A stretch of DNA of 64,000 nt. Source: an uncultured Gammaproteobacteria bacterium (GTDB lineage Bacteria > Patescibacteriota > Patescibacteriia > Magasanikbacterales > UBA922). Of the stretch, positions 43,128 through 63,965 are shown piece by piece. The notes beneath the pieces were generated by a model. The model was not told the origin of the DNA. It was given only the letters and a program-made list of their open reading frames with translations, and made no database searches. The position numbers and the translations under genes are program-made. The stretch is taken from NCBI GenBank assembly GCA_964344965.1, contig CAYFPJ010000004.1, positions 11,532-75,531 of the forward strand, in the 5' to 3' direction. Every line of letters begins with the position of its first letter. The first letter of the stretch is position 1.

Positions 43128-43282
43128 GACCTCGTTCCTCGGTACGGGACGAGAGATCGGTTTAACCTGCCTGCCGGTCTTCGACTATGAAGCTCAGACT
43201 GAATAGCAGGCAGGTTCCCCGGGGCTTGCCCCGGAAAAATTGGTCAAGGACTTGCCCTGGAGTTCATACCATTGATTTATTT
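43128..43282 (+). repeat. ~150-nt structured element, family F copy 1 (three hairpins; shared 30-nt module TCCCGACCTCGTTCCTCGGTACGGGACGAG)
   Basis: Homologous to the reverse complement of 63790-63965. Confidence 0.7.
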
Positions 43283-43313
43283 TGAATTACGAAAAACTCT
43301 AATCTCGTCATTG

Positions 43314-43412
43314 CGAGGAGTGCGCGAAGCAAGCACGACGTGGCAATCTAGACTTTGGAAGTGTAGATTGCTTCGTCATCCCGTACTTCGTCGGGATTCC
43401 TCGCAATGACGA
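43314..43412. mobile_element. MITE-like element M2 (TIR TCGTCATTGCGAGGAG)
   Basis: Same TIRs as M1, M3 and M4. Confidence 0.8.
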
Positions 43413-43438
43413 AAATGCAATTTAACGAGTAGTGTGAA

Positions 43439-43582
43439 ATAAAAGTAAATTTGGTTTAAGTAAGACTTCATCGGGCCATCCCCGCAGCAAGCTGCGGGGT
43501 ATTGGCAGAAAATCTTATTTCAACCAATGTTAGTTTTCACTTTTTCGATGCAAGCATCGAGGAATAAAACCGCTTAAAGATT
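43439..43582 (+). repeat. ~145-bp interspersed repeat, copy E
   Basis: Identity to copies A, C and D. Confidence 0.9.
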
Positions 43583-43709
43583 AAAATTGATATTTTCCTT
43601 ATTTTAGCAAAATATGAATTTTCCGCATATCTATTTTCTAAAAATATTTAGCTAAATTAAGCCAAACGAGTCTAATTCACACTACTCGTAATTTAGTAAT
43701 TCAAAATAA

Positions 43710-44246
43710 TTATTTATGTAAAAAATGATGATGAACAAGAGCCCAAGCCGCCATAGTCTGTCCGTCCCAGATATCATTACGACGAATCATTTCATCTACT
43801 TCATCTGGCCTGCGATACATTACTTCTATATCTTCTGTGTCATCAAGGTCCATTTCCTGTTGTTCACTCAAGTGAGCTATGAAGACATGGGTAGTGTCCT
43901 TGGTATATCCATTGGCAGGTTGAAATTCTCCAACCTTGATAAATTCATCAGCCAAATATCCTGTTTCTTCTGCTAGCTCCTCTTTGGCAGCCTCTAAAGC
44001 TGTCTGACCATCTTTCAATCCTCCTCCTGGAAATTCAATACTCTCCTTATTAGTCAGGTATCTAGATTGCAAAATCAAAACCAAACGACCATCTGGTAAT
44101 ACTGGAACCACGATAGACATCCCACTAAGCTCTGAATAATAATAGTCACCTATATCACCGTTTGGTAATTCATAAGTGTCATGCTTGTAAGTATACCAAG
44201 GATTCTCGTGCAGTGTTTCTTCTGATAATTTTTTGAGGTGTTTCAT
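43710..44246 (-). CDS. NUDIX hydrolase (ADP-ribose pyrophosphatase-like)
   Basis: Nudix box GGGLKDGQTALEAAKEELAEETGY. Confidence 0.8.
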   Translation of the reverse strand: MKHLKKLSEETLHENPWYTYKHDTYELPNGDIGDYYYSELSGMSIVVPVLPDGRLVLILQSRYLTNKESIEFPGGGLKDGQTALEAAKEELAEETGYLADEFIKVGEFQPANGYTKDTTHVFIAHLSEQQEMDLDDTEDIEVMYRRPDEVDEMIRRNDIWDGQTMAAWALVHHHFLHK

Positions 44247-44295
44247 AAGTCATTATAATATCAGTAAAATCTATATAAATCAGTCTGAATTAATG

Positions 44296-44697
44296 CTAAA
44301 ACAATTTGGCAACCTCTTCTACAGAAGTATCACCAGCATTATTAATAATAGAATGGATATTTCCTCCCCCATCACCCTTCCAACGAGGTAAGATATGAAC
44401 ATGTAGATGTGACACCTCTTGTCCACCTGCCTCTCCATGATTCCAACCAACGTTGAATCCATCTGGATGAAGAGTGGATTCTAGTTTTTCCATCACTTTC
44501 TCAATAGATAAAAAAAGATCTTTGGAAAGTTCTTTATTCAGGTCAAACAAATTTTCTGCATGTACTTTTGGCACCAGTACTGTATGACCTTTGGCACGAG
44601 GGTTTATATCCAAAAAGGCGAGAAAGTGTGCATCCTCATACACAGTATGATTTGGTATTTCTCCTCCTACAATTTTACAAAAAATACAGTCTTTCAT
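44296..44697 (-). CDS. HIT family hydrolase
   Basis: Histidine triad HLHVHILPR. Confidence 0.85.
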   Translation of the reverse strand: MKDCIFCKIVGGEIPNHTVYEDAHFLAFLDINPRAKGHTVLVPKVHAENLFDLNKELSKDLFLSIEKVMEKLESTLHPDGFNVGWNHGEAGGQEVSHLHVHILPRWKGDGGGNIHSIINNAGDTSVEEVAKLF

Positions 44698-44726
44698 AGG
44701 TTATAATAAATTCTTTAAAACATAAA

Positions 44727-44837
44727 ACTATCATTTTCGTCATTGCGAGGAATGAAACGCAGTGGAATGACGAAGCAATCTACACTTTGGACGTGTAGAT
44801 TGCCACGTCGCTCCTTCGTCGCTCCTCGCAATGACGA
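44727..44837. mobile_element. MITE-like element M3
   Basis: TIRs TCGTCATTGCGAGGA / CCTCGCAATGACGA; internal palindrome GCAATCTACACTTTGGACGTGTAGATTGC. Confidence 0.8.
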
Positions 44838-44898
44838 ATTTTAGATATTTATAGTACAAATTAACTTATACTTACTCTGCAATATTATCAATATTTAG

Positions 44899-47127
44899 CT
44901 ATTTTTTCAAGTCAATATTCCAAATCAGAAAGTCACCCAGCTGCTCAGGTGTGGAGCTGGAAAATTCTGACATTTTTGCTTCCTTTTCCTCATCTACATC
45001 TTTTATTGGCAACACAACCCAACACCTCTCATGTCCAGTGATATTAGATATCTCAGATAAGACACTTTGTTCTGGATTTTCTATCATTTCAGATAATAAT
45101 GAAACTCTCTTCTCTTGGGCAAATTGGTAATCAATAGGAAATCCGCCACCGACAATTTTTTGAGATGACCTCGACTCAAGAGCAAGAAGAATCCAAGTAT
45201 TTGCTAAAACACACTGACTATCTTCATTTTTATGCTTCCAAACATAATTGGCCGCATTATATTCATCTAGACTGACAACTCTCATATCAGGACCAGTCGC
45301 AAATGATGTCGTGCCCACCCAAGAAAATAATACTACCAATGACAAAATAACCACATTCCTATACCTTGCTCTCATTTTCTCAAAATTAATCTTACTCAAA
45401 CCAAAAACAAAATAAACAAATATGACTATAGAAAAAATTGGATCAAGACGGCGGACAAATGATCTGTCTCCCTCGAGGAAAAACCAACCTATCAAATATC
45501 CAGCCACAATACTCGTAGCAAAAAGATTAAAAATCAACCAAACTATTTTTTTCTTATATAATGATCTCCAGAGTCCAAATATTGCTAAGCCAAAAATAAT
45601 TGAAACACCAAGCATCATTGGCCAACGCCAGTCAGTGAAGAAGCTCGATACAAAAGCATAATCTGGAGTATGATTGATAAGAATATTGCCACTAAGCATA
45701 TCATGAGGGCGAATAGCACTAGCATAGTACCAGCCACTAAACTGGCCGAGCATCTGCTTAATCTGGTTCACAAAGTCCCAAGATTGAGGAAGGTGGCTAG
45801 CTCTACTGACTATTTCTATAATTGGAAAAAATAAGATGGCAAAAATTGTTGAGAATGAGATAGTTATTTTTCTAAAAATTTTATTGCCACGAAAATCTAT
45901 ATTCTTGAAAAATAAAGAAATTAAAATCACAAACCAAATCAAAATGAAATACAGTGTGTACCCAAACAGCATGGAGACTGCAAAAAATAATGCCAAATTC
46001 CTTCCCCTCTTACCCCCACTATCCAAATATTGCAACCACAGCATCAACGTGAATAAGAAGAATAATAATCCCAAACTAACAGGCAGAGCAAGGCTCCCAA
46101 GAGCTTGTAGGGTAAATGGGATTAGTGATAAGAATGAAAAAAACAAACCAGCCCGCCACGAACCAAACATGATTCGACCAATTCGTAATAAAACTATCGG
46201 CAAAACTATAGACCATAAGAAAACCATCATCCACTTGTTGACTGCCAACAAATCAATATCTAGGGTGGCAGATAAAAGCACGCCAGATCCCCAGAGATGA
46301 CCATAAAGATACTTGTGTGGCACGACCAAAGCTTCTGGCACATCTATGCCTGCTACTTCACGCCAGCTAGCTTCATCCCCAAACAAAACTGGCAAAACAG
46401 ACTGACCACCCAACAATTGATTCTCGACAGCCACATGTCTCCATACATCCCCGCCCCAAGGCATCTCATGAGACAATGGTAAATAAAGATGCATGACTAG
46501 AGACTGAACAATAATCAAAAATAACAAAGTCTTGATCTTGTGCTTTGAACAAACTAATATCCCTAGCACGAAAATAGACAAAAAAGTAAGAGGTAAAACA
46601 AGTTTATCAATACTTTGCCAAGGAGAATTCAAAACTTCTGTGCCATTTGATTTGAGAAGTAAGAAAAATATCAATGAAGCAAGTAGTAAAAAAATTCCCA
46701 ACAAAATATTATTTTTCTTAAACATTACAAAGCCAAATTTCTTTTTTCCATTTTCAGAAAGTCCTCTTTTTCTTTTTTTCTTAACAATCAAAAAAAGCAG
46801 ATAGCTAAATATTGCTAAAGTTAAATATACTGACCACAAAAGCATGGGAGTCAGCTTGTACCAGACGACCAAGACAGAGCTGAACAAACCTAGCAAAGTG
46901 AAAACTGTAAAAAATGAAAATACCACCGTCATCCAATCCTTATACTTCATCCCAAAAATACGATGCAAAACACAACGCCAATATTCTCCTACAAACCATA
47001 GATAGACGACAAATAGCAAAATTCCAGCAAATTTGCTATGCCAAACAGTCAGTTGGAGATATAACAAAAATAGCAGAACTGCCAACTTACCAACTTCTAT
47101 CAATTTTATCCTATACAAAAATTTCAC
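44899..47127 (-). CDS. large polytopic membrane protein (~16 TM plus C-terminal soluble domain), GT-C-like glycosyltransferase/polymerase candidate
   Basis: 742-aa ORF; paralogous to 47346-49556 (SPWQSIDK vs SPWQAVNH, GGDVWRHVA vs GFDAFIHRA). Confidence 0.6.
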   Translation of the reverse strand: MKFLYRIKLIEVGKLAVLLFLLYLQLTVWHSKFAGILLFVVYLWFVGEYWRCVLHRIFGMKYKDWMTVVFSFFTVFTLLGLFSSVLVVWYKLTPMLLWSVYLTLAIFSYLLFLIVKKKRKRGLSENGKKKFGFVMFKKNNILLGIFLLLASLIFFLLLKSNGTEVLNSPWQSIDKLVLPLTFLSIFVLGILVCSKHKIKTLLFLIIVQSLVMHLYLPLSHEMPWGGDVWRHVAVENQLLGGQSVLPVLFGDEASWREVAGIDVPEALVVPHKYLYGHLWGSGVLLSATLDIDLLAVNKWMMVFLWSIVLPIVLLRIGRIMFGSWRAGLFFSFLSLIPFTLQALGSLALPVSLGLLFFLFTLMLWLQYLDSGGKRGRNLALFFAVSMLFGYTLYFILIWFVILISLFFKNIDFRGNKIFRKITISFSTIFAILFFPIIEIVSRASHLPQSWDFVNQIKQMLGQFSGWYYASAIRPHDMLSGNILINHTPDYAFVSSFFTDWRWPMMLGVSIIFGLAIFGLWRSLYKKKIVWLIFNLFATSIVAGYLIGWFFLEGDRSFVRRLDPIFSIVIFVYFVFGLSKINFEKMRARYRNVVILSLVVLFSWVGTTSFATGPDMRVVSLDEYNAANYVWKHKNEDSQCVLANTWILLALESRSSQKIVGGGFPIDYQFAQEKRVSLLSEMIENPEQSVLSEISNITGHERCWVVLPIKDVDEEKEAKMSEFSSSTPEQLGDFLIWNIDLKK

Positions 47128-47152
47128 AATATTTTCGATCTAAAAAAACGAT

Positions 47153-47257
47153 TCGTCATTGCGAGGAGCGACGAAGGAGCGACGCGGCAATCTCATTGTG
47201 TGTAGGTAAAACTTTGAGATTGCCACGTCGTTCTTTCAGACTCCTCGCAATGACGAA
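47153..47257. mobile_element. MITE-like element M4 (inverted relative to M1)
   Basis: Sits in the divergent promoter region between the two paralogous membrane-protein genes. Confidence 0.8.
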
Positions 47258-47345
47258 CTAACCTGTGGCCGAAAATTGATTATTAACATCAAATTCTATA
47301 TACTGTTCTCTAGAAACTATAGCTAAATATAGCAAAAAAGGCAAT

Positions 47346-49556
47346 ATGAAGAACGTTTCCAAAAAACAATACCTGATAGCTGCAAGCGGCGCTACATTAC
47401 TTTTGTTATTGAACATTTTCTTTTTGAACAGTATCTTGATTGGCATCACAGCCATCATCCTCTATGGCTACGTTTTCAGCAGATTTATCGCTGATATTTT
47501 TTTGTCAGAAGAAAACCAAGGCAGACTATTTTATGGCTTTTTACTACTCCTGACTGGAGAGATACTAACCAACACTGCCCTCTACTATCTCCACGGCATC
47601 ACACCAGTCACCGTTGCCATCGCCCTACTTCTACCGTTCCTACTATTTCTATCATCAAAATCTCTCCCCCTTTATAAGGGGGAGATGGCCGCAGGCCAGA
47701 GGGGGTTGCGTGGCAGAGCCCCATTTCTTGGCATAGCCAACATCCTCCTAAACATCGCTCTCCTCACAACTCTCTTCCTAAACCAAACAACATCCCTAAT
47801 GCCCTCCCCCTGGCAAGCGGTAAACCACTGGTTTTTCATCACCTTCGCTATTTCCACTGCATTTCTAATCCTGTTCGTCTCTAAAAATAAAAATTATCAG
47901 ACTAGCATCTTCGCAATGGCAGTGCACCTGTTTGTGATGTTTGGTGTGGCAGCCATCCTCTATCCACTGGGCTATGGCTTCGATGCCTTCATCCACCGCG
48001 CAACTGAAGAATGGATCTTACTGAATGGTAGTATCTTGCCAAAAACTCCTTACTATATTGGCCAGTACAGTCTAGTTGCTTGGCTGGCTCATATTACTTC
48101 CCTGCCAATTTTCTATCTTGATGTCTATCTTGTCCCGATCTTAGCGTCTATTTCCTTGCCAATCGTAGTTTCCAATGTGCTAAAAAAAATCTGGAACATA
48201 CCGTACAAAGTTGGAATCCTTCTCACACTTTTCATTCCTTTCATCCCCTTTCTTTCTCTTCATCTCACCACTCCTCACAACCTGGTAATCTTATTTACAA
48301 TTCTTATTGTCTTCACCACTCTTGGCTATTTGAAAAATAAAACACCCCTAATTATTCCCTTCTCCCTCTCCCTCGCTTCTCTCGCCACCCACCCCCTAGT
48401 CGCTGCTCCTACTTTTGTTTTTCTTATTGCAACAATGATCATTAAAAAAACATCCGCCAGAGGACGGACCAGCCTCTGGCTGGAAAAACTATCTCCTATC
48501 TCCTATCTCCTATCTTTTTTACTAATCACCCTCACAGTCCCAATTCTCTTCATCCTCAACAATTTCCTCGCCAATGCTCCCCTACCAACATTCACCAATC
48601 CTCTGTCAAGTCTACCTTACTTCCTAGAACTCTTTGCCCGCCCCTACTGGTATCTTGAAAATGCTCCGATAATTTATGAACTCCTCTACACTTGGCAACT
48701 TTTGATAATTCCAATTGCGATTTCCCTCTGCTTCGCTGGATTTTTCATATCCAAAAAAAAGCTCAAAGCTGAGTATCTATTTCCAATAGCAACAATATCA
48801 TTCTTCCTCAGTGCCTGGCTCCTACGCAGTTGGATCGTCTTCCCCGACGTCGTCTCCTACGAACAAGGCGACTATCCCCTCCGCCTCCTCAAAACCAGCC
48901 TCATCTTCATCCTCCCCTTCGGAACGTTCATGATTTATAAAATACTTGCAAACTTGCAAACTTACAAACTTACAAACTTAAGCAAAACCAGAAAAACAGC
49001 AATGACTATCACGTTAGTGACAATCATCTCAGCATCGCTCATGCTCTCCTTCTACTTCTCCTATCCTCAAAGAAACATCAAATCCCGCTTCCCCGGCTTC
49101 AATATCACCGCTGCTGATTTCCAGGCTGTCGAATGGATTCATGAAAGAGAGAAAAAAACTTTCCGAAGCATAGGAAGGATTGATGGACCCTCTTTATTTT
49201 TATCGACACAAGTCGCAGAAATCGATTACATTGTACTATCAAATCAACTTGTCTCTGCTAGCGCGCTCACAAAATACAGCTTTGCCAAATATTTCCAAAC
49301 TGAGTCAGGAGAAATATTTTACTATTCAATCCCTACTGGTGGAAAACTATACCAACAATACGGCAAGATGCTCTATGAAGGACAAAAGCGAGAGTATATG
49401 GAAGATGCCATGCAGATTGCTGGAGTGGACAAAGCTTACTTTGTCGTAAACTCTTACTGGGCCAATGCTGATAAAATTATTGAAGGAGCGAAAGAAAGTG
49501 CTGATGGTTGGGAAGTGATTAATAATCAAGTCTGGATTTTTATTTATGAAAAATAA
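47346..49556 (+). CDS. large polytopic membrane protein, paralog of 44899-47127, with an in-frame palindromic-element insertion
   Basis: 736-aa ORF; element E5 at 47659-47716 encodes LPLYKGEMAAGQRGLRGRAPF in frame. Confidence 0.6.
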   Translation: MKNVSKKQYLIAASGATLLLLLNIFFLNSILIGITAIILYGYVFSRFIADIFLSEENQGRLFYGFLLLLTGEILTNTALYYLHGITPVTVAIALLLPFLLFLSSKSLPLYKGEMAAGQRGLRGRAPFLGIANILLNIALLTTLFLNQTTSLMPSPWQAVNHWFFITFAISTAFLILFVSKNKNYQTSIFAMAVHLFVMFGVAAILYPLGYGFDAFIHRATEEWILLNGSILPKTPYYIGQYSLVAWLAHITSLPIFYLDVYLVPILASISLPIVVSNVLKKIWNIPYKVGILLTLFIPFIPFLSLHLTTPHNLVILFTILIVFTTLGYLKNKTPLIIPFSLSLASLATHPLVAAPTFVFLIATMIIKKTSARGRTSLWLEKLSPISYLLSFLLITLTVPILFILNNFLANAPLPTFTNPLSSLPYFLELFARPYWYLENAPIIYELLYTWQLLIIPIAISLCFAGFFISKKKLKAEYLFPIATISFFLSAWLLRSWIVFPDVVSYEQGDYPLRLLKTSLIFILPFGTFMIYKILANLQTYKLTNLSKTRKTAMTITLVTIISASLMLSFYFSYPQRNIKSRFPGFNITAADFQAVEWIHEREKKTFRSIGRIDGPSLFLSTQVAEIDYIVLSNQLVSASALTKYSFAKYFQTESGEIFYYSIPTGGKLYQQYGKMLYEGQKREYMEDAMQIAGVDKAYFVVNSYWANADKIIEGAKESADGWEVINNQVWIFIYEK
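47659..47716. repeat. G/C-run palindromic element E5 (CTCCCCCTTTATAAGGGGGAG + GGGGGTTGCG...), intragenic and in frame
   Basis: Perfect hairpin inside a CDS. Confidence 0.75.
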
Positions 49557-49644
49557 AAATAATCTCGATTGTATTGTATTTTCTGAATTTTTATGTAAAA
49601 TAACTTTATAGAGAATCTCGTAAACCTATTTTAACCACAAACCT

Positions 49645-50292
49645 ATGACATATGAAGATCTAGTAAGAAGAGGTGTAGAATTAATAAGATATCAAGAACG
49701 ACCAACACCAGATCAGATAACAGGAGAAGCAACAAAACTAGCAGTAGAGGCAACGAAAGCTGATGAACCTATATATGGAATGGATGCAGCTGCTACTGTT
49801 GCTCGTCAAAGACAAGAAACAAGCAAAAATGTTATAGAAAGATTTCAACAAGCAGTAGAAGATGAGAACACAGCTGTTCTTCAAGGAACTCTCTGGGAGG
49901 TGTGGGAAGTAGAAGACTGTAAGATCTTGCTAGCAACCATGGAAGAAATCAAAGCACAGATAATCCTGGAAAACACAGCTCTAAAATTAAGAGAAGAAAG
50001 CTATGAAGAAAGAACTAGAGAATTGGAAGAGTGGTCTTATGGAAACATATACAAAGAAGGAATCGAAAATTTTTTACCAAAACTAAAAGCATTGGTATCT
50101 GTACTTGAAAAAATAACCACAGAAGGAGAACCTAGCGGTCATCTAAGAAGACTGTACGCCGGATGGTCCGAAGAGCAAATACAACAATATTATGATCGAG
50201 CAAAAGAACTAGTTGACGAACTAGAAGATAAGCTAGAAGATGCTCCTGGAGAGGATGATGGTTATTATGATGATGGTTACGATGACTGGTAA
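49645..50292 (+). CDS. hypothetical acidic coiled-coil protein
   Basis: 215-aa ORF with a very acidic C-terminus (DDGYYDDGYDDW). Confidence 0.5.
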   Translation: MTYEDLVRRGVELIRYQERPTPDQITGEATKLAVEATKADEPIYGMDAAATVARQRQETSKNVIERFQQAVEDENTAVLQGTLWEVWEVEDCKILLATMEEIKAQIILENTALKLREESYEERTRELEEWSYGNIYKEGIENFLPKLKALVSVLEKITTEGEPSGHLRRLYAGWSEEQIQQYYDRAKELVDELEDKLEDAPGEDDGYYDDGYDDW

Positions 50293-50293
50293 T

Positions 50294-51484
50294 TTACTCG
50301 TTGTATAACTTCTCTAGTTTCCCTACATACCCCCCTTCCGACCTCCCCGTGGTCGGAATTTTTTTACTCATTTTTTCAACCTCTTCTCTATTCTTCACGC
50401 ACCATTGCAACTTTTCTCCCAAAGACTCATTATCCCCTGCCTCAAAAGTAAACCCATTCTCCCCTTCTTCAATTAATTCTGCAATCCCTTCAATTCTGCT
50501 GGCAAGTACTGGCACACCAAAAGAAAGACTCTCAAAAATAACTGTTGGCGAATTCTCATAGCAGAGAGACGGCACAATAGTAATATCAGTCTTAGAAAAC
50601 AACCCTGGCAATTCATCACGACCCACCCGACCATGCACCACAATATTTTCACCACCTTCAGCCAAATCTTTTACATCCCCCAAAGCCGACCCGTCCCCCA
50701 CCACATGCAGTTCGCAATTTGCGTTAGTTTTGACAAACTGCTTAAAAATCCGAAGCAAAAACAAAATGCCCTTGTGCTCTTCAATCTGCCCCAAATACAA
50801 AAAACTAAACAAATCATTTTCCCCTTTCCCCTTTCCCCTTTCCCCTTTCCCCTCACTAAACGTCATCGGATTCCTCACCACCACAAACTTCGAGCTAGCA
50901 AAAAATCCTCGCTCCTTATAAAAATCAAGTAAAAATTGTGAAGGAGAAATCACAACCTCAGGAGAAGCAAAGAGCTTCTTCATAATCCAAGTATAGACTC
51001 TTGTTGGCCATCCTGTGTAACGCCAGCTATTTTCTTCTTTTTTCAAAATAATTCCGCTGGGTTCCACTAGCTGAACATCATGAACAGTGTGGATGTGACG
51101 AATGTCCAGGGAACGAATGGTGCGTGGGATGAGAAAGCTAAGTCCCATTAAATTATGAGTGTGAACAATATCTGGTTTTTCCCAAGTCAAAATTTTCTTT
51201 ACTTCACTACTTACAGAAAAATTAAAAGTATCAACAATATGCCACAAAAAACGTGACAAAAAATCATGTTTGTGTGCTTCAGTATAAAAAAAAGTATTCT
51301 TCGGCTTGATGCGGTAAATCTTCAAATCATCACTTTCTTCTACCCCTGGATCATCCGGTGTGCTGGTAATCAAAACAACACTATTCCCAGCCGCCATAAG
51401 CCCCTCCACAGTCTTCCTCACTACCTGCTCTGCCCCACCACGAGCATAAGGAGGATATAAATTGTTGATAATGCAAATTTTCAT
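50294..51484 (-). CDS. family 4 glycosyltransferase (GT4, GT-B fold)
   Basis: N-terminal YPPYARGGAEQVV motif; C-terminal EGFG.P..EA-like region; contains a (TTTCCCC)x5 repeat at 50821-50855. Confidence 0.8.
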   Translation of the reverse strand: MKICIINNLYPPYARGGAEQVVRKTVEGLMAAGNSVVLITSTPDDPGVEESDDLKIYRIKPKNTFFYTEAHKHDFLSRFLWHIVDTFNFSVSSEVKKILTWEKPDIVHTHNLMGLSFLIPRTIRSLDIRHIHTVHDVQLVEPSGIILKKEENSWRYTGWPTRVYTWIMKKLFASPEVVISPSQFLLDFYKERGFFASSKFVVVRNPMTFSEGKGERGKGKGENDLFSFLYLGQIEEHKGILFLLRIFKQFVKTNANCELHVVGDGSALGDVKDLAEGGENIVVHGRVGRDELPGLFSKTDITIVPSLCYENSPTVIFESLSFGVPVLASRIEGIAELIEEGENGFTFEAGDNESLGEKLQWCVKNREEVEKMSKKIPTTGRSEGGYVGKLEKLYNE

Positions 51485-51487
51485 AGA

Positions 51488-51568
51488 AAACAATCCGGAT
51501 ATCCAGATAATCCAGATCTACAGATGACTATCCGGAAAATCTGGATTATCTGGATATCCGGATTGTTT
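51488..51568. promoter_or_regulatory. perfect 30-bp inverted repeat with a 21-bp spacer, built from ~8 copies of ATCYRGAT, immediately upstream of the GT4 start
   Basis: Arms 51488-51517 and 51539-51568 are exact reverse complements. Confidence 0.7.
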
Positions 51569-56063: not shown

Positions 56064-56215
56064 AGTGACAGTAGTATAGCCACCCCAAAGACTCCCGTCA
56101 ATCTCAAGAACGAAATAACCCCAAAATAAACATTTCGATTAAAAAACCCACCTAACCAGGCGGGCTCAATATTCGTGCTGTCTGTCTTCATTCGTGTTAT
56201 TCGCTAAAATTCGTG

Positions 56216-56530
56216 TTATTTGACAGTACCAATCTTCACCTTTGTCTTCTTCTGTCTATGACCAATCACCCTCTTGTAGCGAACTTTACGCTTGAACTTC
56301 ACGACGCGAATCTTCTTGTCGCGAGTCTGGGACTCAACAGTGGCGGCAACACTTACCCCTTCGAGATAAGGAGTACCGATCTGTACATCAGAGCCGTCTT
56401 CCTTAGCCAAAAGAAGAACTTTTTCAAAAACTACTTCCTTACCAGGTTCGACGTCTAATTTTTCAATTTTTAGAGTTTGTCCTGACTTGATCAGGTATTG
56501 CTTACCGCCGGTCTGAATTACTGCGAACAT
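56216..56530 (-). CDS. rplU: 50S ribosomal protein L21
   Basis: MFAVIQTGGKQY...; bL21 family. Confidence 0.9.
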   Translation of the reverse strand: MFAVIQTGGKQYLIKSGQTLKIEKLDVEPGKEVVFEKVLLLAKEDGSDVQIGTPYLEGVSVAATVESQTRDKKIRVVKFKRKVRYKRVIGHRQKKTKVKIGTVK

Positions 56531-56641
56531 ATTTTTTAGGTATTAGGTATTTAGGTTATAGGTGTTTAGGAAATTTACCCACCGGAGCTTTAGCGTAGGT
56601 GAGCGTGAATAGTTTACCTGTTTTCAACCAATAAGTCAAGT

Positions 56642-57109
56642 CTAGTCCTCCACAAGGGACATTTTGTCCCCTATTTTGAGGTCATGTGCTACTGCCCAGC
56701 CAGATTGAAGCTCTAAGACCATAGTAGAGTCAATTCTAGGTGTATATACCCGCAATTGCTCCTCTGGGACATCTTCTGGCTCCACACTAGGTGCAATGTC
56801 CACCACCTCACCCTTATCTAGCCAGATAATATCAATTGGAAAATTCATGTCCCTCATCACTATGCCATGTTGCCCTGGAAATTCAAACAAAAACAACATT
56901 CCTTGATTTTGTTCCAACTTATTCCTTCCTCCCAAACCTTTGTATCTCTGTTGGATAGTTTTGGGTAGCCAAACATTCAGAATCTCACCGTTTAGGAAGA
57001 CTTTTTTCACTGGGATCCTGTATTGCCAAAATTGTAGTGCCACAAAAGCAATGAAAAAAATTGTTAGAAAAAAGATTCCGATTTTGCTTACTTTAATTTG
57101 GTTAGGCAT
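56642..57109 (-). CDS. DUF192 domain protein
   Basis: N-terminal TM helix; GMLFLFEF...IDIIWLD pattern. Confidence 0.65.
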   Translation of the reverse strand: MPNQIKVSKIGIFFLTIFFIAFVALQFWQYRIPVKKVFLNGEILNVWLPKTIQQRYKGLGGRNKLEQNQGMLFLFEFPGQHGIVMRDMNFPIDIIWLDKGEVVDIAPSVEPEDVPEEQLRVYTPRIDSTMVLELQSGWAVAHDLKIGDKMSLVED

Positions 57110-57188
57110 ATTTTCCTATATCCTATAACGTATAACCTATAGCCTATATGTAACTAACACATACAGGTTACAAGTTATAAGTTACACG

Positions 57189-58241
57189 TTATAAGCCTTT
57201 CTTCTTACTAAACCAAACTCCCAAAAGTAACATCAAAATAAACAGTAGCACCAAAGCAATCATCTTCTCACTACTCTGCAAAAATAACGTCGTTACCCCA
57301 AACAAAAATGAAATAGCATACATGAGAAGCACTGCTTGCTTTTGGGTCAGGCCAGATTCAATCAGTTTGAAATGCAAGTGCTCACTGTCCCCAACATGGA
57401 TTGGTTTTTTCTTTTGGATCCTTCTTATTATAACACGAATTACGTCTAGTGCGGGGATACCCATTACTAGAAGTGTGGTAGCAATCTTACCGCCAGAAAT
57501 AATAGCTAAGGCCCCGATCATAAAGCCAGTAAATAGACTACCACCTTCGCCCAAGAATATCTTGGCTGGATGCCAATTCCAGGCCAAAAATCCAAGACAG
57601 CTACCAGCAAAAATAATTGACAAGAGTGCTACTTCTGGTTGATACCATGGCTCCTGGAGACTAAGAGCGAAGATCATCATCGCCCCAATAGTGACCACAC
57701 CAGTAACCAATCCGTCTAACCCATCAAGAAACTTGGTGGTAAACATCATTCCCATCAACCAAAAGAAAACTACCAAATCTGCCAAAATTACCCAATTACC
57801 CAAACCAGCAAGCGACAGAGTCCACTGGTCTAGAGAAACTACCCCGCCCCAAGGATTAGTAATTTCATGAGGCCCAATGCCAAAAGCAATAATGATAGTA
57901 GCAGCCAAAATTGGAAAAATAATTTGTTTTTTTGCCCTCAGATTGTACTTATCATCCAGTAGACCTCCAATCATCAAGACCAGACCTCCCCAAAACAAAC
58001 CCCAAATATGGCGTGGTAATACATCATTTCCAAAATGACTGGAAAGCAAAAGAAAAGTAATCAAAAAAAAGCTAAAAAAAATTGCCATTCCTCCTCCGAG
58101 TGGAATTTTCTTCTTGTGAATCTTACGTTTCTCTGTCCGAGGAGCGTCTACAATGTGATACTTCTGCATCAAGATCCGAACCAGAGCAGTGGCAAAAAGA
58201 GAGGCAAAAAAAGTAATAATAAAATAACCAAAATATTGCAT
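57189..58241 (-). CDS. MraY/WecA-family polyprenyl-phosphate N-acetylhexosamine-1-phosphate transferase (likely MraY)
   Basis: 10-11 TM helices; DD..D motif (LLDDKYNL); DGLDGL motif; H-rich loop PIHVGDSEHLHF. Confidence 0.6.
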   Translation of the reverse strand: MQYFGYFIITFFASLFATALVRILMQKYHIVDAPRTEKRKIHKKKIPLGGGMAIFFSFFLITFLLLSSHFGNDVLPRHIWGLFWGGLVLMIGGLLDDKYNLRAKKQIIFPILAATIIIAFGIGPHEITNPWGGVVSLDQWTLSLAGLGNWVILADLVVFFWLMGMMFTTKFLDGLDGLVTGVVTIGAMMIFALSLQEPWYQPEVALLSIIFAGSCLGFLAWNWHPAKIFLGEGGSLFTGFMIGALAIISGGKIATTLLVMGIPALDVIRVIIRRIQKKKPIHVGDSEHLHFKLIESGLTQKQAVLLMYAISFLFGVTTLFLQSSEKMIALVLLFILMLLLGVWFSKKKGL

Positions 58242-58443
58242 AATTTGTATATGACAATGTCAACTAATATTGTACCTCAATCTATATTCTTTTACAAAAC
58301 AAAAAAAGACCCCAACCTCGCTCACTCCTTGCCAATATTTCCAATAAACCTGTCCTGCGAAGCTTCAGCGAAGCAGGATGAAAATATCAGCAAGTCGCGC
58401 GAGGCCAAGGTCCTCTCCAAATGCGTGACTCTAGCCCTTTCCT

Positions 58444-58707
58444 CTAGGAGCGCCGAAGCTCCGTACGGAGCCAAGCGACGAAGCAGACCACAAAGACAAG
58501 CGCCAGTGGCACAAACAGGGCCAAAGAAAAAGGCTCTGAAGCTGCCGCCCACAGTCCCACAAAAGGACTGAAACAGACGGCCGCCACAGCACCAAATCCC
58601 GGGCTCTTCTCAACACGCCAGCAAAACAGCGCGCCGAGGGCCAGGTAGGTGCTAACGATCCACCCCACAATAACCATTTCCGCCTCCGCGGCGATATGAG
58701 GGTTCAT
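58444..58707 (-). CDS. hypothetical small membrane protein encoded in a GC-rich island
   Basis: ~87 aa from an internal ATG preceded by GAGGG; 2-3 TM helices; overlapping alternative-frame ORFs look like GC-driven artefacts. Confidence 0.4.
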   Translation of the reverse strand: MNPHIAAEAEMVIVGWIVSTYLALGALFCWRVEKSPGFGAVAAVCFSPFVGLWAAASEPFSLALFVPLALVFVVCFVAWLRTELRRS

Positions 58708-58802
58708 TCCCTCTCTTCTTACTTTTTTTGTCAAAAATTAAGAAGAGAAAGAATGTAAAACATGTAAAAAATAAACCACAGAAATAGTGGTTTGTCAATT
58801 AT

Positions 58803-58912
58803 TATATTATCCCTCCCCTTTTAGGGGAGGTTAGGAGGGGTTACGGACTACCAAAATCTTTCTTGCTAAGTAACCCCCTCTAGCTCCCCCTAAAAGGGGG
58901 AGAAATTTTAAC
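58803..58912. repeat. G/C-run palindromic element E4 (three hairpins)
   Basis: CCTCCCCTTTTAGGGGAGG; GGAGGGGTTAC...GTAACCCCCTC; CTCCCCCTAAAAGGGGGAG; overlaps the stop of the Clp ATPase gene. Confidence 0.8.
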
Positions 58913-61646
58913 CCCTCTCCACCCTAATTTCACAACCTGCTCCCAATACCACCACATCTCTCCGTTGCAATTTATTTGAAAGCAGCAAGTCAGCAAGTTG
59001 ATTTTCTACTTTATTCTGTATTGCTCTACGCATCGGACGAGCCCCAAATTCTGGATCAAACCCTACTTCAGCGAGAGATTCGAGAGCAGCCTCTTCCACG
59101 CGCATTCCGATCCCCTTGATCGCCAGATCCTTCTCTACCCGCTTCAGCATCAAGCCAGCAATCTTCTTGATTTCTTCCCTGTTCAATGCTTTGAAAAGTA
59201 CGATGCCATCAAAACGATTGAGGAATTCTGGTTTGTAATATTTTTTCAATTCTCCACGAACAATATCTTGACGAATACTCTCTAGATCGACTCCTTCTCT
59301 GATCTTGTCCTGGACATAGGCAGTACCAGCATTACTGGTTGCAATGATTATCGTATTGGTGAAATCGATCACCCGACCGACACTGTCAGTCAGTCGCCCA
59401 TCATCAAACACTTGCAAAAACAGATTGAGAATATCAGGATCAGCCTTTTCCATCTCATCTAGAAGTACCAAGGAAAAAGGATTTTGTCGCACTGCTTCTG
59501 TCAGAAGTCCTGTCCCTTGCTGACCAGGTTGGCCAATTAGGCGATAGACTCCACTCTTGTCCTGATACTCACTCATATCGACTCTGATCATCCTCTCTTC
59601 TCCACCAAAGTAGACATTGGCAATAGTCTTGGCAAGCTCAGTCTTACCCACACCAGTCGGTCCGAGGAATAGGAAATTGGCAATCGGCCTATTCTCTGAT
59701 CTCATCTGGGCTCTAGCTCTACGAAGAGCACTAGCCACGAGGACCACGGCTTCATCTTGACCAATGACCCGCTTGTGCATTTCATCCTCCAGGCGCAATA
59801 ATTTGCTAGACTCATCTTCTGAGATGCTAGTCACCGGTATGCCAGTCTTACTGCCGACAATAGCTGCCACATCATCTCCTGTCACAATCTGATTTTTACC
59901 TCTTTTTCTTCTAGTGTAAGCGGCTGCTTCTGTCATCAATTCTATTGCACTTTCTGGCAAATTCTTGTCATGAAGAAACTTCGTAGCCAGCTGGACAGAT
60001 TGTGCCAGAGCATCATAAGAAAAAAATACTCTATGCTTGTATTCTGACAAACCAACTTTTGACTCTAGTACTTGGATAGCTTGGTTTTGATTCATTTCAT
60101 TGATATCTACTCTCACCAAGGCCTGAGAAATCTCTGAGTCCAAAATATATTTATTGAACCCATCGAGAGTGGTGGTAGCAAAAGAAAAGAAACGATCTGT
60201 GCCAATGAACTCAGCTAAGGTCTCTGAGACATCAAGCCCTTCTCCTCCGTCACCTTTGGCTCCTGCTCCGACCAGGTCATGAATATTATTTATAAATAAA
60301 ATAATATTTTTGGCTCTAGCCACCTCGTGCATGATCTGAATCAACCTCTGCTGAGCGCCACTGACTGTAGTACCGGCCAAAAGAGAGGAAGTAGAGATTT
60401 GAACCAACCTCTTGTCTTTTAGCAAATTTGGAACATTTTCTTCTACCATCCTCTGAGCAATACCTTCGATGATACTCATCTTACCTACTCCACGATTACC
60501 AACCAAAAGGGCACTCTGAGCACCGCCTTCAATGATACGGAAAAGTTGGTCTATCTCCTTCTCTCTTGCTACACAAGGAAAAAGTTGACCAAACTTGGCA
60601 GACAGAGTCAAATCTTGACTAAATCGATTTAAAAAAGGAGTAGCTATGGCAGTCATAGCACGATCCATACCATGCTTACTTCTACGAGCCGCAGCTTTTT
60701 TGAACTTTTGATGCTGCCGACGAAGATTTTCTCCAATTCTAAGCCACTCAATGACATTGACAAGTTTTTGTTGATCCACCTTCAGGTCATACAATAATTC
60801 CTGGAGAGCTTGAGATTGCATCACTGTAGCATGAAGTAGCTCTGTCACGTGGACATAATCTTGCTTGGCGCGGTAAGCATATTCATACGCATGAAATAAA
60901 ATTTGCTCTGCATCATCACTTCTTTCTAAACTATTACCTAAAAATCTTTTGGCGACAAGGGCTCGGAGCTGCTTAGCTGGAATACTAAGTCTAGCAAAAA
61001 CCCCCTCAATTCCTGGCACAGAAAGCAAAGTATAAAAAACGTGAAAAGAGTTTATATTGACTTTTTTACCAGACCCTGGAGCACTGTATGATTTTTCAAT
61101 TACTTGCAGAGCTTCTTCTGTGAATACTTTAGAGATGTCTTTTTTGTTTTTTCTAGAAAATTTCTTCACTTGAGACCAGTCCGAAAGAATCTCCACATTA
61201 CTATTTTCAGCAGTATTATACGAATAATTTTCTACTGCCTCAATTTTTTTGTGTCCAGCTATTATTCGATAGATAAAAAAAGAAAAAGAGGCAATAGCCA
61301 ACCAAAAAAAAGCTTGGGTCATGCCAGGACCCTCTTGCCAAAAGCTTGCAGAAAAAATATCCAACCACAACTTCTGGCTATCAACTCGCCAAAAAAATAA
61401 CCCAAGAAAACCAACAAAAAAAATAATAGAACCGAAAATTTCAAACTTTTGCAAAAAATGAGTAGCTTTTCTCAAAAGAATATGATACCTGGTCAGAGGG
61501 CGTCCCCAATATAACAACTTTTCGCGCACTGCATAAGCCACACCATGTTTACGACAAACATAGCAAGGACGCGGACCACTGTAACCTTTGGCATCACACT
61601 GACTACAGACAAGCAAGGGAATTTTTTCTTGAGCATCAAATTGCAT
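58908..61646 (-). CDS. Clp/Hsp100 AAA+ ATPase (ClpC/ClpA-like) with an unusual N-terminal zinc-ribbon and two predicted TM helices
   Basis: 912-aa ORF; Clp_N repeats; AAA2 Walker A GPTGVGKT; AAA1 P-loop reads GNRGVGKMS; N-terminus CSQCDAKGY...CYVCRKHG followed by two hydrophobic helices. Confidence 0.8.
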   Translation of the reverse strand: MQFDAQEKIPLLVCSQCDAKGYSGPRPCYVCRKHGVAYAVREKLLYWGRPLTRYHILLRKATHFLQKFEIFGSIIFFVGFLGLFFWRVDSQKLWLDIFSASFWQEGPGMTQAFFWLAIASFSFFIYRIIAGHKKIEAVENYSYNTAENSNVEILSDWSQVKKFSRKNKKDISKVFTEEALQVIEKSYSAPGSGKKVNINSFHVFYTLLSVPGIEGVFARLSIPAKQLRALVAKRFLGNSLERSDDAEQILFHAYEYAYRAKQDYVHVTELLHATVMQSQALQELLYDLKVDQQKLVNVIEWLRIGENLRRQHQKFKKAAARRSKHGMDRAMTAIATPFLNRFSQDLTLSAKFGQLFPCVAREKEIDQLFRIIEGGAQSALLVGNRGVGKMSIIEGIAQRMVEENVPNLLKDKRLVQISTSSLLAGTTVSGAQQRLIQIMHEVARAKNIILFINNIHDLVGAGAKGDGGEGLDVSETLAEFIGTDRFFSFATTTLDGFNKYILDSEISQALVRVDINEMNQNQAIQVLESKVGLSEYKHRVFFSYDALAQSVQLATKFLHDKNLPESAIELMTEAAAYTRRKRGKNQIVTGDDVAAIVGSKTGIPVTSISEDESSKLLRLEDEMHKRVIGQDEAVVLVASALRRARAQMRSENRPIANFLFLGPTGVGKTELAKTIANVYFGGEERMIRVDMSEYQDKSGVYRLIGQPGQQGTGLLTEAVRQNPFSLVLLDEMEKADPDILNLFLQVFDDGRLTDSVGRVIDFTNTIIIATSNAGTAYVQDKIREGVDLESIRQDIVRGELKKYYKPEFLNRFDGIVLFKALNREEIKKIAGLMLKRVEKDLAIKGIGMRVEEAALESLAEVGFDPEFGARPMRRAIQNKVENQLADLLLSNKLQRRDVVVLGAGCEIRVERG

Positions 61647-61716
61647 AATGAAAAAACTAATTTACGAGTGATATGAATTAATTTTTACAATTGACTGAAT
61701 TAATTAGCATAACTTG

Positions 61717-62076
61717 TTAACTTATTATGACTGACAGAGAAAGCATATAAACTACAAAAATAGGAAAAACCAGCCACAAAAAGAAGACAGACAAGAGCAA
61801 TAAAAACCAAAAAAGTAAAGCTATTGATCTGAATATAATATTAAAAAATCTAATAAACACACTCATCAGGCGACCCTGGATATCTCTCTGCCCAAACATA
61901 GGGACAAAAATATTTTTCAACCACAGCATCGGAGCAAGACGACTATTGCCACCTTGAAAAACATTCCACAGACCAGCCCCCACCCACAACAAACCACCAG
62001 AATACCACCATACTGGAAAATAAAAAAAATCCAACACCAACTTAATAATGAGCCTCTGGAAAACAATAAAAAACAT
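61717..62076 (-). CDS. hypothetical small membrane protein
   Basis: 119-aa ORF with 3-4 TM helices. Confidence 0.45.
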   Translation of the reverse strand: MFFIVFQRLIIKLVLDFFYFPVWWYSGGLLWVGAGLWNVFQGGNSRLAPMLWLKNIFVPMFGQRDIQGRLMSVFIRFFNIIFRSIALLFWFLLLLSVFFLWLVFPIFVVYMLSLSVIIS

Positions 62077-62270
62077 ACAAATAAATTATCAGTGTAATCA
62101 ATCAAAAATCAGTGTAATCAATGTTTAAATTGTACCACAAAAACAAAAAAACTCCCACACAAATGAGAATCTTTGGCACCCAGCTAGAGCCAAGCAACCA
62201 AGTGTCTATCAAGAAAAAAACTGAAGAAACAATTTATCTAGTTGCTAGTTATTGATTACTAGTCACAATG

Positions 62271-62615
62271 CTATCTAAGAGCAACAGCCGTGCCAACTGG
62301 TGTGAGATATTCTGGACTATCGACAGTCACTAGATTCAATTCTGTAATTCTATTCTGAATTGACTCCATAGAACGATACTCAGCTATCTCGACATTGATC
62401 TTTCTATTTTCTCTTTCGAGTTCTACGATCTGTCTTTCCAAATCACTAATCTCAAAACCTTTGGTAGATACAGAATTCGTCTGGAAAACATAGAGAACTC
62501 CAAACAAAATCATCATCACAATCAATCCAACCCGAAAAGAACTGCTGACTATCAACTTCTGGAGAGCTTGTTTTTTTTGTCTTAATGTTGGTTTTTGTTT
62601 TAAATAAGCATTCAT
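62271..62615 (-). CDS. ftsL: cell division protein FtsL/DivIC-like (septum formation initiator)
   Basis: Single TM helix plus coiled coil; immediately downstream of rsmH, as in dcw clusters. Confidence 0.6.
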   Translation of the reverse strand: MNAYLKQKPTLRQKKQALQKLIVSSSFRVGLIVMMILFGVLYVFQTNSVSTKGFEISDLERQIVELERENRKINVEIAEYRSMESIQNRITELNLVTVDSPEYLTPVGTAVALR

Positions 62616-62719
62616 AAGTATCGCGATTTTGTATATAAGTTATAGTAAGAAAGTTAAATATTATAGTTGAAAATAATCTGTACTGACATGAGATGACGAT
62701 AACGGTGACCAATTACTGA

Positions 62720-63694
62720 CTACAATTTTTCTACCACTCGTAACTTTGCAGATCTGGACCTAGGATTATGTTCACGCTCCCTGTCACTACAGACAATAGG
62801 TTTTTTTGTGACAATATTGATACTTTTTCCTTTCTGTGATTTGAAATAGTGCTTCACAATCCTATCTTCCAGAGAATGAAATGATATCACAGCCAGCCTA
62901 CCCCCACTTGCCAACAAATCTATTGCCTGGGGCAATGTACGCTCTATCACACCGATTTCATCATTTACAATGATTCTAAGAGCTTGAAAAGTTTTGGTAG
63001 CCGGGTGAGTCCCACCTACCCAAGGAATTTTATTTTCATCTTTTATTTTTAATTTTTTTCTATAAACCTCGAGGACAATATCCACCAAATCACCGACAGT
63101 CTCTAAAACAAACTTCTCTCTTTTTTCTACTACTAGTCTAGCCATCTCCTTACTTAGTTTTTCTTCACCACATTCTCGAAATATTTTTTCTAGCTCTTCT
63201 TCACTTTTTTTGTTCAAATGTTCTGCCGCGGTACACTTACCATATAGCGGCTTACCATCATATGACAAAGGTGGATTATCTGCGAGGTGGATACACTTCA
63301 GACGCATGTCATAGCGCATGTCTAGAGGTTCTTCTTTGTTTTGGAATGAGAATCCTCTTCCGCGCTCTTGAAACTGTGGACTAGACCAACCCAAGTCAAT
63401 GAGTATTGAATTAACTGGCGCAAAATCATGTGTTTTTATTATCTCTGATAAATTTTCAAAATTATCTCTTTCAAAAATTACTCTGTCAGAAAACTGATGT
63501 AAAAATTTTTTGGATCTTAGGAGTGACTCAGGGTCAGCATCTATACCGAGCAGTCTCCCGTCTGGACTAGTTGCTTCTAATATTTTTTCAGAATGACCGG
63601 CATCACCAATGGTGCAATCGACGACATTAATCCCTGGCTTCAGTTTTAGAAATTCAAGTACCTCTTCCAAAAGTACCGGCACATGACGTAACAT
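62720..63694 (-). CDS. rsmH: 16S rRNA (cytosine1402-N4)-methyltransferase RsmH (MraW)
   Basis: HVPVLLEEVL...DCTIGDAGHS...DLGWSSPQ motifs; start taken at the internal ATG 63694. Confidence 0.85.
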   Translation of the reverse strand: MLRHVPVLLEEVLEFLKLKPGINVVDCTIGDAGHSEKILEATSPDGRLLGIDADPESLLRSKKFLHQFSDRVIFERDNFENLSEIIKTHDFAPVNSILIDLGWSSPQFQERGRGFSFQNKEEPLDMRYDMRLKCIHLADNPPLSYDGKPLYGKCTAAEHLNKKSEEELEKIFRECGEEKLSKEMARLVVEKREKFVLETVGDLVDIVLEVYRKKLKIKDENKIPWVGGTHPATKTFQALRIIVNDEIGVIERTLPQAIDLLASGGRLAVISFHSLEDRIVKHYFKSQKGKSINIVTKKPIVCSDREREHNPRSRSAKLRVVEKL

Positions 63695-63789
63695 ATATTT
63701 TAAATTCTGTGTAATCCTTAAAATCCACGTAATCTGTGTAGGCATAAATGACCTCAGACGTCGGCGCCATACATAAATACCAACGCCTG

Positions 63790-63965
63790 AGATCTTCGAC
63801 CATATTACTTATCCGGCGTAGCTCCTGCCTGCCGGCAGGCAGGTTAGGGAAGCCGGAATCAAAGGTATGAACCCCAGGGCAAACCCTGGACCTTTTTTTC
63901 CGAGGCAATCCTCGGGTAATCAAACCAACCCCTCGTCCCGTACCGAGGAACGAGGTCGGGACTAA
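63790..63965 (-). repeat. ~150-nt structured element, family F copy 2 (inverted relative to copy 1)
   Basis: Reverse complement begins with the same 30-nt module as 43128 and shares the hairpin modules. Confidence 0.7.

Follow-up and report, generated by a model that had tools for sequence, protein, structure and literature searches.

Insertion sequences (ISs) of the IS200/IS605 family have neither inverted repeats nor target duplications, and their insertion site is the 3' side of a specific tetra- or pentanucleotide; both ends must carry a hairpin, to which a dimer of the Y1 (HUH) transposase TnpA binds, and short guide sequences at the hairpin foot pick the cleavage sites (PMC7290912, PMC10055086). 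Palindrome-associated transposable elements (PATEs) are gene-less derivatives that retain only the ends and are moved in trans (PMC7290912, PMC10055086). Here, we analyzed a window of 64,000 nt from a member of the Patescibacteriota (order Magasanikbacterales; contig CAYFPJ010000004.1, positions 11,532 to 75,531, of assembly GCA_964344965.1), in which a first-pass annotation of the DNA had noted two similar, hairpin-bearing elements in inverted orientation. We use the name E1 for the 105-nt unit common to both copies. Our analysis indicated that the E1 copies are likely to be gene-less, PATE-type miniature derivatives of an IS200/IS605-family IS. They were filed with the PATEs because they have no terminal inverted repeats, target duplication or coding capacity, and because a TT-rich pentanucleotide lies directly 5' of all 16 elements of this kind that we tabulated.

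Anatomy of the E1 elements

The exact 30-mer TCCCGACCTCGTTCCTCGGTACGGGACGAG occurred twice in the window, at 43124-43153 on the plus strand and at 63932-63961 on the minus strand, against an expectation of 0. No match was obtained in 100 shuffled sequences, even with 3 mismatches tolerated, and the other modules listed for E1 were likewise confined to these two places; the similarity noted in the first-pass annotation is therefore beyond chance. After removal of a 49-nt palindrome from copy 1 (43166-43214), the cores of both copies were 105 nt long and aligned gap-free, with 86% identity. The two copies have inverted orientations, with starts 20.8 kb apart, and the identical stretch between them measures only 30 nt (45 nt at 91%). 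The module order, which had been described as permuted between the copies, is collinear; only the palindrome sits elsewhere, and the apparent permutation arose because it was inserted independently. The features of the two copies are listed below, with bit scores from R1, a covariance model built from three E1 copies alone (for the third, see below).

43119 to 43123, plus strand: TTTAA pentanucleotide, putative target or transposon-adjacent motif, directly 5' of E1 copy 1
43124 to 43277, plus strand: E1 copy 1, 105-nt core with the nested 49-nt palindrome; R1, 97.7 bits
43126 to 43160, plus strand: extra, E1-specific 5' hairpin of copy 1, with a 13-bp stem and the loop TCGGTAC
43166 to 43214, no strand: nested palindrome insert CCTGCCTGC-(31 nt)-GCAGGCAGG, which splits the copy 1 left end between GGTTTAA and TTCC
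43219 to 43234, plus strand: left-end hairpin HP1 of copy 1, CCGGGG-CTTG-CCCCGG; homologous, together with GGTTTAATTCC before it, to the left end of IS200
43242 to 43277, plus strand: right-end module of copy 1, GGTC-AAGG-ACTTG-CCCTGG-AGTTCATACCATTGATT (hairpin HP2 and tail)
63813 to 63856, no strand: palindrome block CCGGC..CCTGCCTGCCGGCAGGCAGG..GCCGG, 44 nt, abutting the 3' end of copy 2, outside the 105-nt core
63857 to 63889, minus strand: right-end hairpin HP2 of copy 2 (CCAGGG-TTTG-CCCTGG) and tail GGTTCATACCTTTGATT
63857 to 63961, minus strand: E1 copy 2, 105 nt, with perfect hairpins; R1, 129.4 bits
63900 to 63915, minus strand: left-end hairpin HP1 of copy 2, CCGAGG-ATTG-CCTCGG
63925 to 63959, minus strand: extra 5' hairpin of copy 2
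63962 to 63966, minus strand: TTTAG, the last mraZ codon and its TAG stop, directly 5' of copy 2; flank, not element

Read along its forward strand, E1 starts with a 13-bp hairpin (loop TCGGTAC), continues with the 6-bp hairpin HP1, which has a CTTG or ATTG loop, GGTTTRATTMC before it and an A-run after it, and closes with a second 6-bp hairpin, HP2, followed by GGTTCATACCTTTGATT. HP1 and HP2 were present in every fold of E1, as subterminal hairpins at both ends and on the same strand. The element is 54% G+C in a genome of 39% G+C, and its folds were steadier than those of shuffled sequences (z -3.4 to -4.0), with the reverse strands folding equally well; the loops are of the CUUG and GNRA type, and the conserved 5' stem contains one G-U pair. 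Terminal inverted repeats were absent from E1, its 5' end TCCCGACC.. and 3' end ..ATACCTTTGATT being unrelated as reverse complements, and no frame was open across all copies. Copy 1, which has a bulged 5' hairpin and an imperfect right-end stem, is probably a decayed copy; given these stems and the palindrome nested within it, this copy has probably lost its mobility. The CCTGCCTGC..GCAGGCAGG palindrome, found within copy 1 and just past copy 2, is a separate, independent insert.

The ends of E1 and D1 resemble those of an autonomous IS200 element

The spacer that contains E1 copy 1 also contains a 145-nt miniature element with both IS200-type ends, which we named D1. Its window copies are as follows.

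43438 to 43582, minus strand: D1, 145 nt, in the same spacer as E1 copy 1
8392 to 8536, minus strand: D1
29508 to 29652, minus strand: D1
37570 to 37714, minus strand: D1
40055 to 40199, minus strand: D1

A sixth copy lies just outside the window (contig L044, 13590-13712), and the copies are mostly >95% identical. All six are on the window minus strand, four of them sense and two antisense to the flanking genes, and short-read contigs of the population end inside D1. The left end of D1, CGGTTTTATTCC-TCGATG-CTTG-CATCGA, and its right end, AATACCCCGCAGCTTGCTGCGGGG, correspond to both ends of the IS described next; no terminal inverted repeats were found in D1.

With the search pattern GGTTTWATTCCNCGNNGCTTGC, which was taken solely from the block common to E1 and D1, we retrieved six contigs from a viral collection. 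TTTAATC, a motif that is not in the pattern, lies 6-12 nt upstream in five of the six, as it does in E1 and D1. On contig L052 (IMGVR_UViG_2534682207_000010, approximately 2850-3468), the left end is followed by a 156-aa open reading frame (ORF) that matched the Pfam family Y1_Tnp, 'Transposase IS200 like', with an E value of 4e-35. Behind this tnpA ORF is a hairpin, CCCCGCAGCTTGCTGCGGGG plus TAGTTCATT (that is, ATACCCCGCAGCTTGCTGCGGGG-TAGTTCATT), which is the second hairpin of D1, and a scan with that hairpin recovered L052. The tnpA end and the right end recur on contig L056; L053 and L050 carry one-hairpin 'solo' forms, and L054 carries a two-hairpin form of approximately 100 nt.

An alignment set the IS left ends, D1 and E1 in register, with the 35-nt hairpin of E1 replacing 10 nt between TC and TTTAATTCC of the autonomous left end. 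The left part of E1 (TTTAA, then TC..GGTTTAATTCC, stem, CTTG and stem) agreed with the left end of autonomous IS200 elements in public contigs, and the right end of E1 is of the GTTCAT type; homology to the IS was strong at either end of D1 and at the left end of E1, whereas the right end of E1 matched less well, through a hairpin and GTTCAT. Each of the 16 tabulated elements starts with TC after a TT-rich pentanucleotide, which reads TTTAA in 8, TTAAA in 4, and TTGAA, TTTAG, TTTCA or TTTAT in 1 each. In left ends of the L052 type, 19 nt separate the pentanucleotide boundary from the hairpin foot, which is the spacing of IS608. At the level of sequence, E1 thus appears as a PATE in every respect that we tested.

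Distribution of E1 and covariation of its left-end hairpin

E1 is rare. The exact 26-mer of its 5' hairpin was absent from 185,579 GTDB species genomes, and the exact 24-mer matched once in 241 million metagenome records, on contig L002. This match is a third E1 (L002, 5237-5342). It adjoins two tRNA-Ser genes and agrees with the window copies in the 31-nt hairpin core and at the 3' end; its 5' hairpin is 100% identical even though the middle of the element differs (approximately 75% identity). An exact scan of viral contigs with the 5' hairpin gave 0 matches, a blastn search with E1 against phages and plasmids gave none, and a concatenated six-frame E1 peptide query, intended for copies miscalled as genes, retrieved nothing among 5.8 billion proteins. 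R1 found no E1 in approximately 400 kb of related Patescibacteria loci. It matched D1 and the IS left ends at E values of 1e-4 to 8e-3 (D1, approximately 1e-3), and the match to D1 runs through the block CGGTTTWATTCC-stem-CTTG-stem-AAAAA.

A scan with the E1 3' motif revealed an E1-like core without the 5' hairpin on contig L034 (7418-7499; R1 E value, 7e-8), to which the right end of copy 2 is 94% identical over 36 nt. L034 is a phage-like contig with genes for exonucleases, an invertase, an integrase and YopX; phages may carry such miniature elements between hosts. The L034 element is placed between a YopX-like gene and a phrog_3243 gene. Our literature search found no paper linking repetitive extragenic palindromic (REP) sequences or miniature inverted-repeat transposable elements (MITEs) with Patescibacteria.

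Compensatory changes in the stems, which had been reported for the tetraloop hairpin, were confirmed. Between copies 1 and 2, HP1 differs by one compensated pair, G-C to A-T. When the two copies, the L002 element, the L034 core and D1 were aligned by hand, with one bulged base removed, five of the six HP1 pairs changed on both sides and 96.7% of the cells were paired, compared with 27-50% in slid control alignments.

Insertion at sites that are empty in a sister species

The genomes closest to the window are those of Magasanikbacteria-like Patescibacteria. Short-read contigs of PRJEB17505 match the window at 100% identity, and several of them end inside repeats, mostly D1. Copy 1 precedes a cupin gene by 17 nt and is antisense to the genes on either side; it is in a 603-nt NUDIX-cupin spacer that also holds two other repeat families. 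Copy 2 is in the mraZ-rsmH spacer, on the sense strand and upstream of rsmH; on contig L032, which reaches past the window end, it begins right after the TAG stop of mraZ.

We compared both spacers with those of a sister species (GCA_002793015.1 and JGI 3300025805), in which RsmH is 79% identical, the gene DNA is approximately 66-81% identical and the gene order is the same. The NUDIX stop and the cupin start are 1 nt apart in the sister species, compared with 603 nt in the window. The two genomes are almost the same at the 3' end of mraZ and in a 52-nt hairpin block that precedes rsmH; between these two stretches, the sister species has 28 unrelated nucleotides and the window has 165 nt, consisting of E1 and the palindrome block. 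The empty site reads TCTAA where copy 2 has TTTAG. More distant relatives, in which mraZ and rsmH abut or overlap, also have no E1 between these genes, and approximately 50 kb of sister loci contained no E1, no D1 and none of the other window repeats. The window segment from 36.0 to 49.6 kb (13.6 kb) is collinear with 10.5 kb of the sister genome, and much of the excess of approximately 3 kb consists of enlarged, repeat-filled spacers that have grown by up to 600 nt. With neither site occupied in the sister species, both E1 copies are lineage-specific insertions, which excludes a conserved RNA gene or operon leader.

No target-site duplication was detected, since the left flank resembled the right end or right flank no better than shuffled sequences did (copy 1, L002 and L034). 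At copy 2, the 10-nt repeat TTGGTATTTA was considered as a duplication or attachment repeat and rejected: 7 of 500 shuffles reached it, but it is ancestral sequence, being present in diverged form at the sister empty site. A likeness between the loop of the copy 1 palindrome and the copy 2 flank was weak (15 of 500 shuffles) and was dropped.

The 52-nt block (GTCGAAGATCTCAGGCGTTGG..CCGACGTCTGAGGTCA, 9-bp stem; window 63749-63800, minus strand; sister contig L038, 4646-4697) is approximately 94% identical in the sister species, though the remaining mraZ-rsmH spacer differs, and, as a candidate for a genuine regulatory or terminator hairpin, is preferable to E1. The same sister spacer contains a hairpin element of its own (L038, 4815-4930), of which 24 nt are 96% identical to the D1 right-end hairpin in the opposite orientation; IS200-type ends therefore circulate in the sister genome as well. 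The mraZ-rsmH spacer of another contig, L003, has the motif ATTCCGAGCGAGCGAAGCGAGTCGAGGAAT, which is related to the nested palindromes described below.

Proposed mode of transposition

If E1 behaves as its ends suggest, it would move as single-stranded DNA by means of a Y1 (HUH) TnpA supplied in trans. Its left end would comprise TC right after the TTTAA-like pentanucleotide, then GGTTTAATTCC and the 6-bp stem with a CTTG loop, within which the E1-specific 35-nt hairpin has been inserted; its right end would comprise the second 6-bp hairpin and GGTTCATACCTTTGATT. The tetraloop hairpin noted in the first-pass annotation would accordingly serve as the left-end TnpA site, and the module described there as GGTC..GTTCATACC would be the right end. 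TnpA would bind both subterminal hairpins, cut at the element boundaries and paste the strand 3' of the target pentanucleotide, leaving neither inverted repeats nor a target duplication, and the compensatory changes would preserve hairpins that the enzyme reads as structure. The enzyme would be encoded elsewhere in the genome or borne by a phage. We infer the exact cleavage points of E1 to within approximately 4 nt and assume that its 5' hairpin is tolerated by TnpA. Any effect of the copies on the expression of mraZ-rsmH or NUDIX-cupin would be a by-product. Regarding strand preference, the top strands of all six D1 copies are on the window minus strand, and the two E1 copies are split 1:1. 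A rough separation of the skews into a gene-strand part and a constant part suggests that the D1 top strand is the lagging-strand template, as expected for the family.

Several observations weigh against a PATE-type origin. No transposase was found among the approximately 50 window ORFs scanned, and a tblastn search with the L052 TnpA yielded nothing in approximately 70 kb of this genome. The homology of the E1 right end to the autonomous IS is limited to the hairpin and GTTCAT, and the closest match to this end is another gene-less element, that of L034. The 35-nt hairpin separates the presumed cleavage site from the left-end guide and hairpin, a position in which it may be incompatible with TnpA action, and the IS copies that we observed do not have it. 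Only three full E1 copies and one E1-like core are known anywhere, and the two window copies are on opposite strands, with no replication-strand bias. In addition, the viral contigs were retrieved with a window-derived pattern, so that the R1 E values on these contigs are not independent; the independent evidence for the link to an IS consists of the TTTAATC motif, the spacing, the right end and the tnpA gene.

Conservation of the 35-nt 5' hairpin is 100% between two unrelated contigs, in contrast to the drifting remainder of the element, and we also considered that this hairpin might be a functional addition, although we regard this as improbable. It could be an omega-RNA-like guide scaffold, read from the top strand and used in trans by TnpB or IscB, or a new left-end architecture in which the stem-loop brings the cleavage site beside the TnpA-bound hairpin. 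PATEs often encode omega-RNA-like guide RNAs (Meers et al., PMC10055086). Either possibility would add a variant not known before to the IS200/IS605 biology of Patescibacteria.

Alternative explanations

The modular make-up of E1 recalls REP sequences and bacterial interspersed mosaic elements (BIMEs), that is, extragenic palindromes that are mosaics of independent hairpin modules and are spread by a REP-associated tyrosine transposase (RAYT). RAYTs are related to the TnpA of IS200. The E1 modules combine differently, the 5' hairpin is identical in L002 despite a differing middle, a D1-type hairpin is present in another element of the sister species and the CCTGCCTGC palindrome inserts independently, all of which would suit such an origin. 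Against this, the ends correspond to those of a complete IS200 that has its own tnpA, the hairpin feet read TTTAATC/ATTCC with no GTAG-type tetranucleotide, the copy number is low (2 in 64 kb) and neither a RAYT nor a Y1 protein was found among the window ORFs scanned. We therefore consider a REP/BIME origin unlikely, and our interim label 'BIME-like mosaic repeat' was replaced after the IS200 ends were found. An even smaller chance is given to a structured noncoding RNA gene or cis-regulatory RNA, such as an mraZ-rsmH leader or attenuator, with covariation that reflects RNA folding. The stable folds relative to shuffles, the CUUG- and GNRA-type loops, the G-U pair, the covarying stems and the sense-strand position of copy 2 within the mraZ-rsmH operon are all compatible with an RNA, but the reverse strands fold equally well, a conserved promoter or terminator is lacking, copy 1 runs antisense to its two neighbor genes, so that orientation to genes is inconsistent between the copies, neither the sister species nor more distant relatives have the elements in the corresponding spacers, and the same hairpins are transposon ends. 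A hairpin with a T-run, considered as a terminator, is present only on the reverse strands of copies 1 and 2, is absent in L002 and is not conserved. A search of the whole window against Rfam gave no match at the gathering thresholds and, at E<=10, only noise around both copies, and ARAGORN detected no tRNA or tmRNA; a known RNA family, such as RNase P or tmRNA, was named at the outset as a possible explanation of the similarity, but neither these nor 6S, SRP, ribozymes, HEARO or any other Rfam family accounts for it. Readings of E1 as tRNA-like, as attC or as CRISPR were ruled out on anatomy. Of the two functions initially put forward, structured RNA or recombination site, the former was not upheld, given the lack of an Rfam match, the empty orthologous spacers and the inconsistent orientation; the latter is correct in a loose sense, in that the hairpins are most likely recognized by a DNA strand-transfer enzyme.

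The inverted arrangement of the copies, with 30 identical nucleotides (45 nt at 91%), had led to the proposal that they serve as a recombination substrate for inversion of the intervening segment (20.6 kb, 43.3-63.8 kb). A length of 30 nt is near the lower limit for homologous recombination. Both the NUDIX-cupin and the mraZ-rsmH junctions are ancestral, and the same-sample contigs L026 and L032 (both ERZ930061) span the copies in the window arrangement at 100% identity; this was the only arrangement in the same-sample assemblies. GC skew and gene strand within the segment match those of the flanks, and no invertase or recombinase gene is adjacent. Inversion at E1 is accordingly very doubtful. 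We give equally little credence to E1 as an attachment or integration site shared by a Patescibacteria phage and the host chromosome, similar to the dRS3/NIME repeats of Neisseria. The E1-like core of L034 (R1 E value, 7e-8; 36 nt at 94%) does occur on a phage-like contig with integrase, invertase, exonuclease and YopX genes; however, it is a whole two-hairpin element rather than a short core, it is separated from the integrase gene by 1.2 kb that include another gene, neither window copy is adjoined by a prophage, and homology to IS200 explains the shared sequence. We therefore retain the IS200/IS605-derived origin: E1 is a member of a known element class, here in a patescibacterium, and an ordinary selfish repeat rather than a new RNA or an inversion switch.

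Other features of the window and significance

Two further repeat families were observed. Nested palindromes of the form CGTCATTGCGAGGA...TCCTCGCAATGACG fill several spacers whose counterparts in the sister species measure 1-72 nt, at the following positions.

20263 to 20373: nested palindrome
43300 to 43415: nested palindrome
44722 to 44852: nested palindrome
47151 to 47257: nested palindrome

The third repeat family consists of AACCCCCTCT..CTCCCCCT-loop-AGGGGGAG hairpins.

564 to 655: hairpin repeat
32468 to 32519: hairpin repeat
47663 to 47685: hairpin repeat
58791 to 58910: hairpin repeat

A 300-nt direct repeat, 100% identical between its copies (21459-21758 and 22077-22376, 618 nt apart), lies inside a 1002-aa ORF without a Pfam match; it reflects either recent duplication within a large surface-type protein or a collapsed assembly. 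Between 1741 and 7246, a XerC-like tyrosine recombinase gene (1741-2553) stands beside genes for a Fic protein and a type I restriction-modification unit, the latter with hsdM and two hsdS-like ORFs carrying 28-nt repeats (6139 and 6719); the arrangement is reminiscent of phase-variable hsdS shufflons. A perfect 30-nt inverted repeat, AAACAATCCGGATATCCAGATAATCCAGAT (51488-51517 and 51539-51568, arms 21 nt apart), is located upstream of dnaB in the divergent spacer. GTGT-containing repeats, TTAGTGTTAATTTGTGTCTAAATTAGTGTTTCTGTG, directly upstream of mraZ (L032, 281-320, just past the window end) are possibly MraZ operator repeats.

These results have consequences for annotation, in that GC-rich hairpin blocks of this kind should be labeled as IS200/IS605-derived miniature elements and not as small RNA genes or regulatory leaders; the D1 copies also explain the breaks in short-read assemblies of this population. 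The biological value is modest. A streamlined Patescibacteria genome has enlarged operon spacers where its sister has overlapping or 1-nt junctions, and several repeat families contribute to the enlargement, at least two of them being derivatives of a single-strand transposon with ends that are found in phage-like contigs as well. The two genomes thus form a pair for studying the spread of such elements in ultrasmall bacteria and the possible disturbance of tightly coupled operons such as mraZ-rsmH.

Comparison with known systems

Classical MITEs (Correia, RUP and Nezha) resemble E1 as small, noncoding, dispersed repeats that break short-read assemblies and lengthen spacers; however, they have terminal inverted repeats and target-site duplications, and E1 has neither. 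REPs, REPINs and BIMEs share with E1 the nature of GC-rich extragenic palindromes and a mosaic arrangement; they are moved by a HUH Y1 enzyme related to TnpA and can stabilize or terminate transcripts. In contrast to E1, REPs are units of 20-40 nt with hundreds of copies, a GTAG foot and a single-copy RAYT gene, whereas the left and right ends of E1 and of D1 differ from each other and match those of an IS.

The autonomous IS of L052 shares with E1 the left end (TTTAA, then TC-N8-GGTTTAATTCC-stem-CTTG-stem) and a right-end hairpin, which in L052 reads CCCCGCAG-CTTG-CTGCGGGG and is followed by ..GTTCAT... It differs in its 156-aa Y1 transposase, its length of approximately 620 nt and the absence of an extra 5' hairpin; E1, in turn, has the right-end stem CCAGGG/CCCTGG and a tail that is approximately 8 nt longer.

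The PATEs of Haloquadratum, Halanaerobium and Geobacillus (PMC3119063, PMC7290912, PMC10055086) are the nearest counterparts. E1 departs from them in its extra, strictly conserved 35-nt left-end hairpin, in the nested palindrome of one copy and in its patescibacterial host, in whose genome no cognate tnpA has been seen so far. The strictly conserved hairpin, the nested palindrome and the scale of spacer invasion relative to a sister with 1-nt junctions make the system mildly unusual. In all other respects compared, PATEs are like E1: they are short, noncoding and intergenic, consist only of hairpin-bearing IS200/IS605 ends without inverted repeats or target duplications, lie 3' of a fixed pentanucleotide and are presumed to be mobilized in trans.

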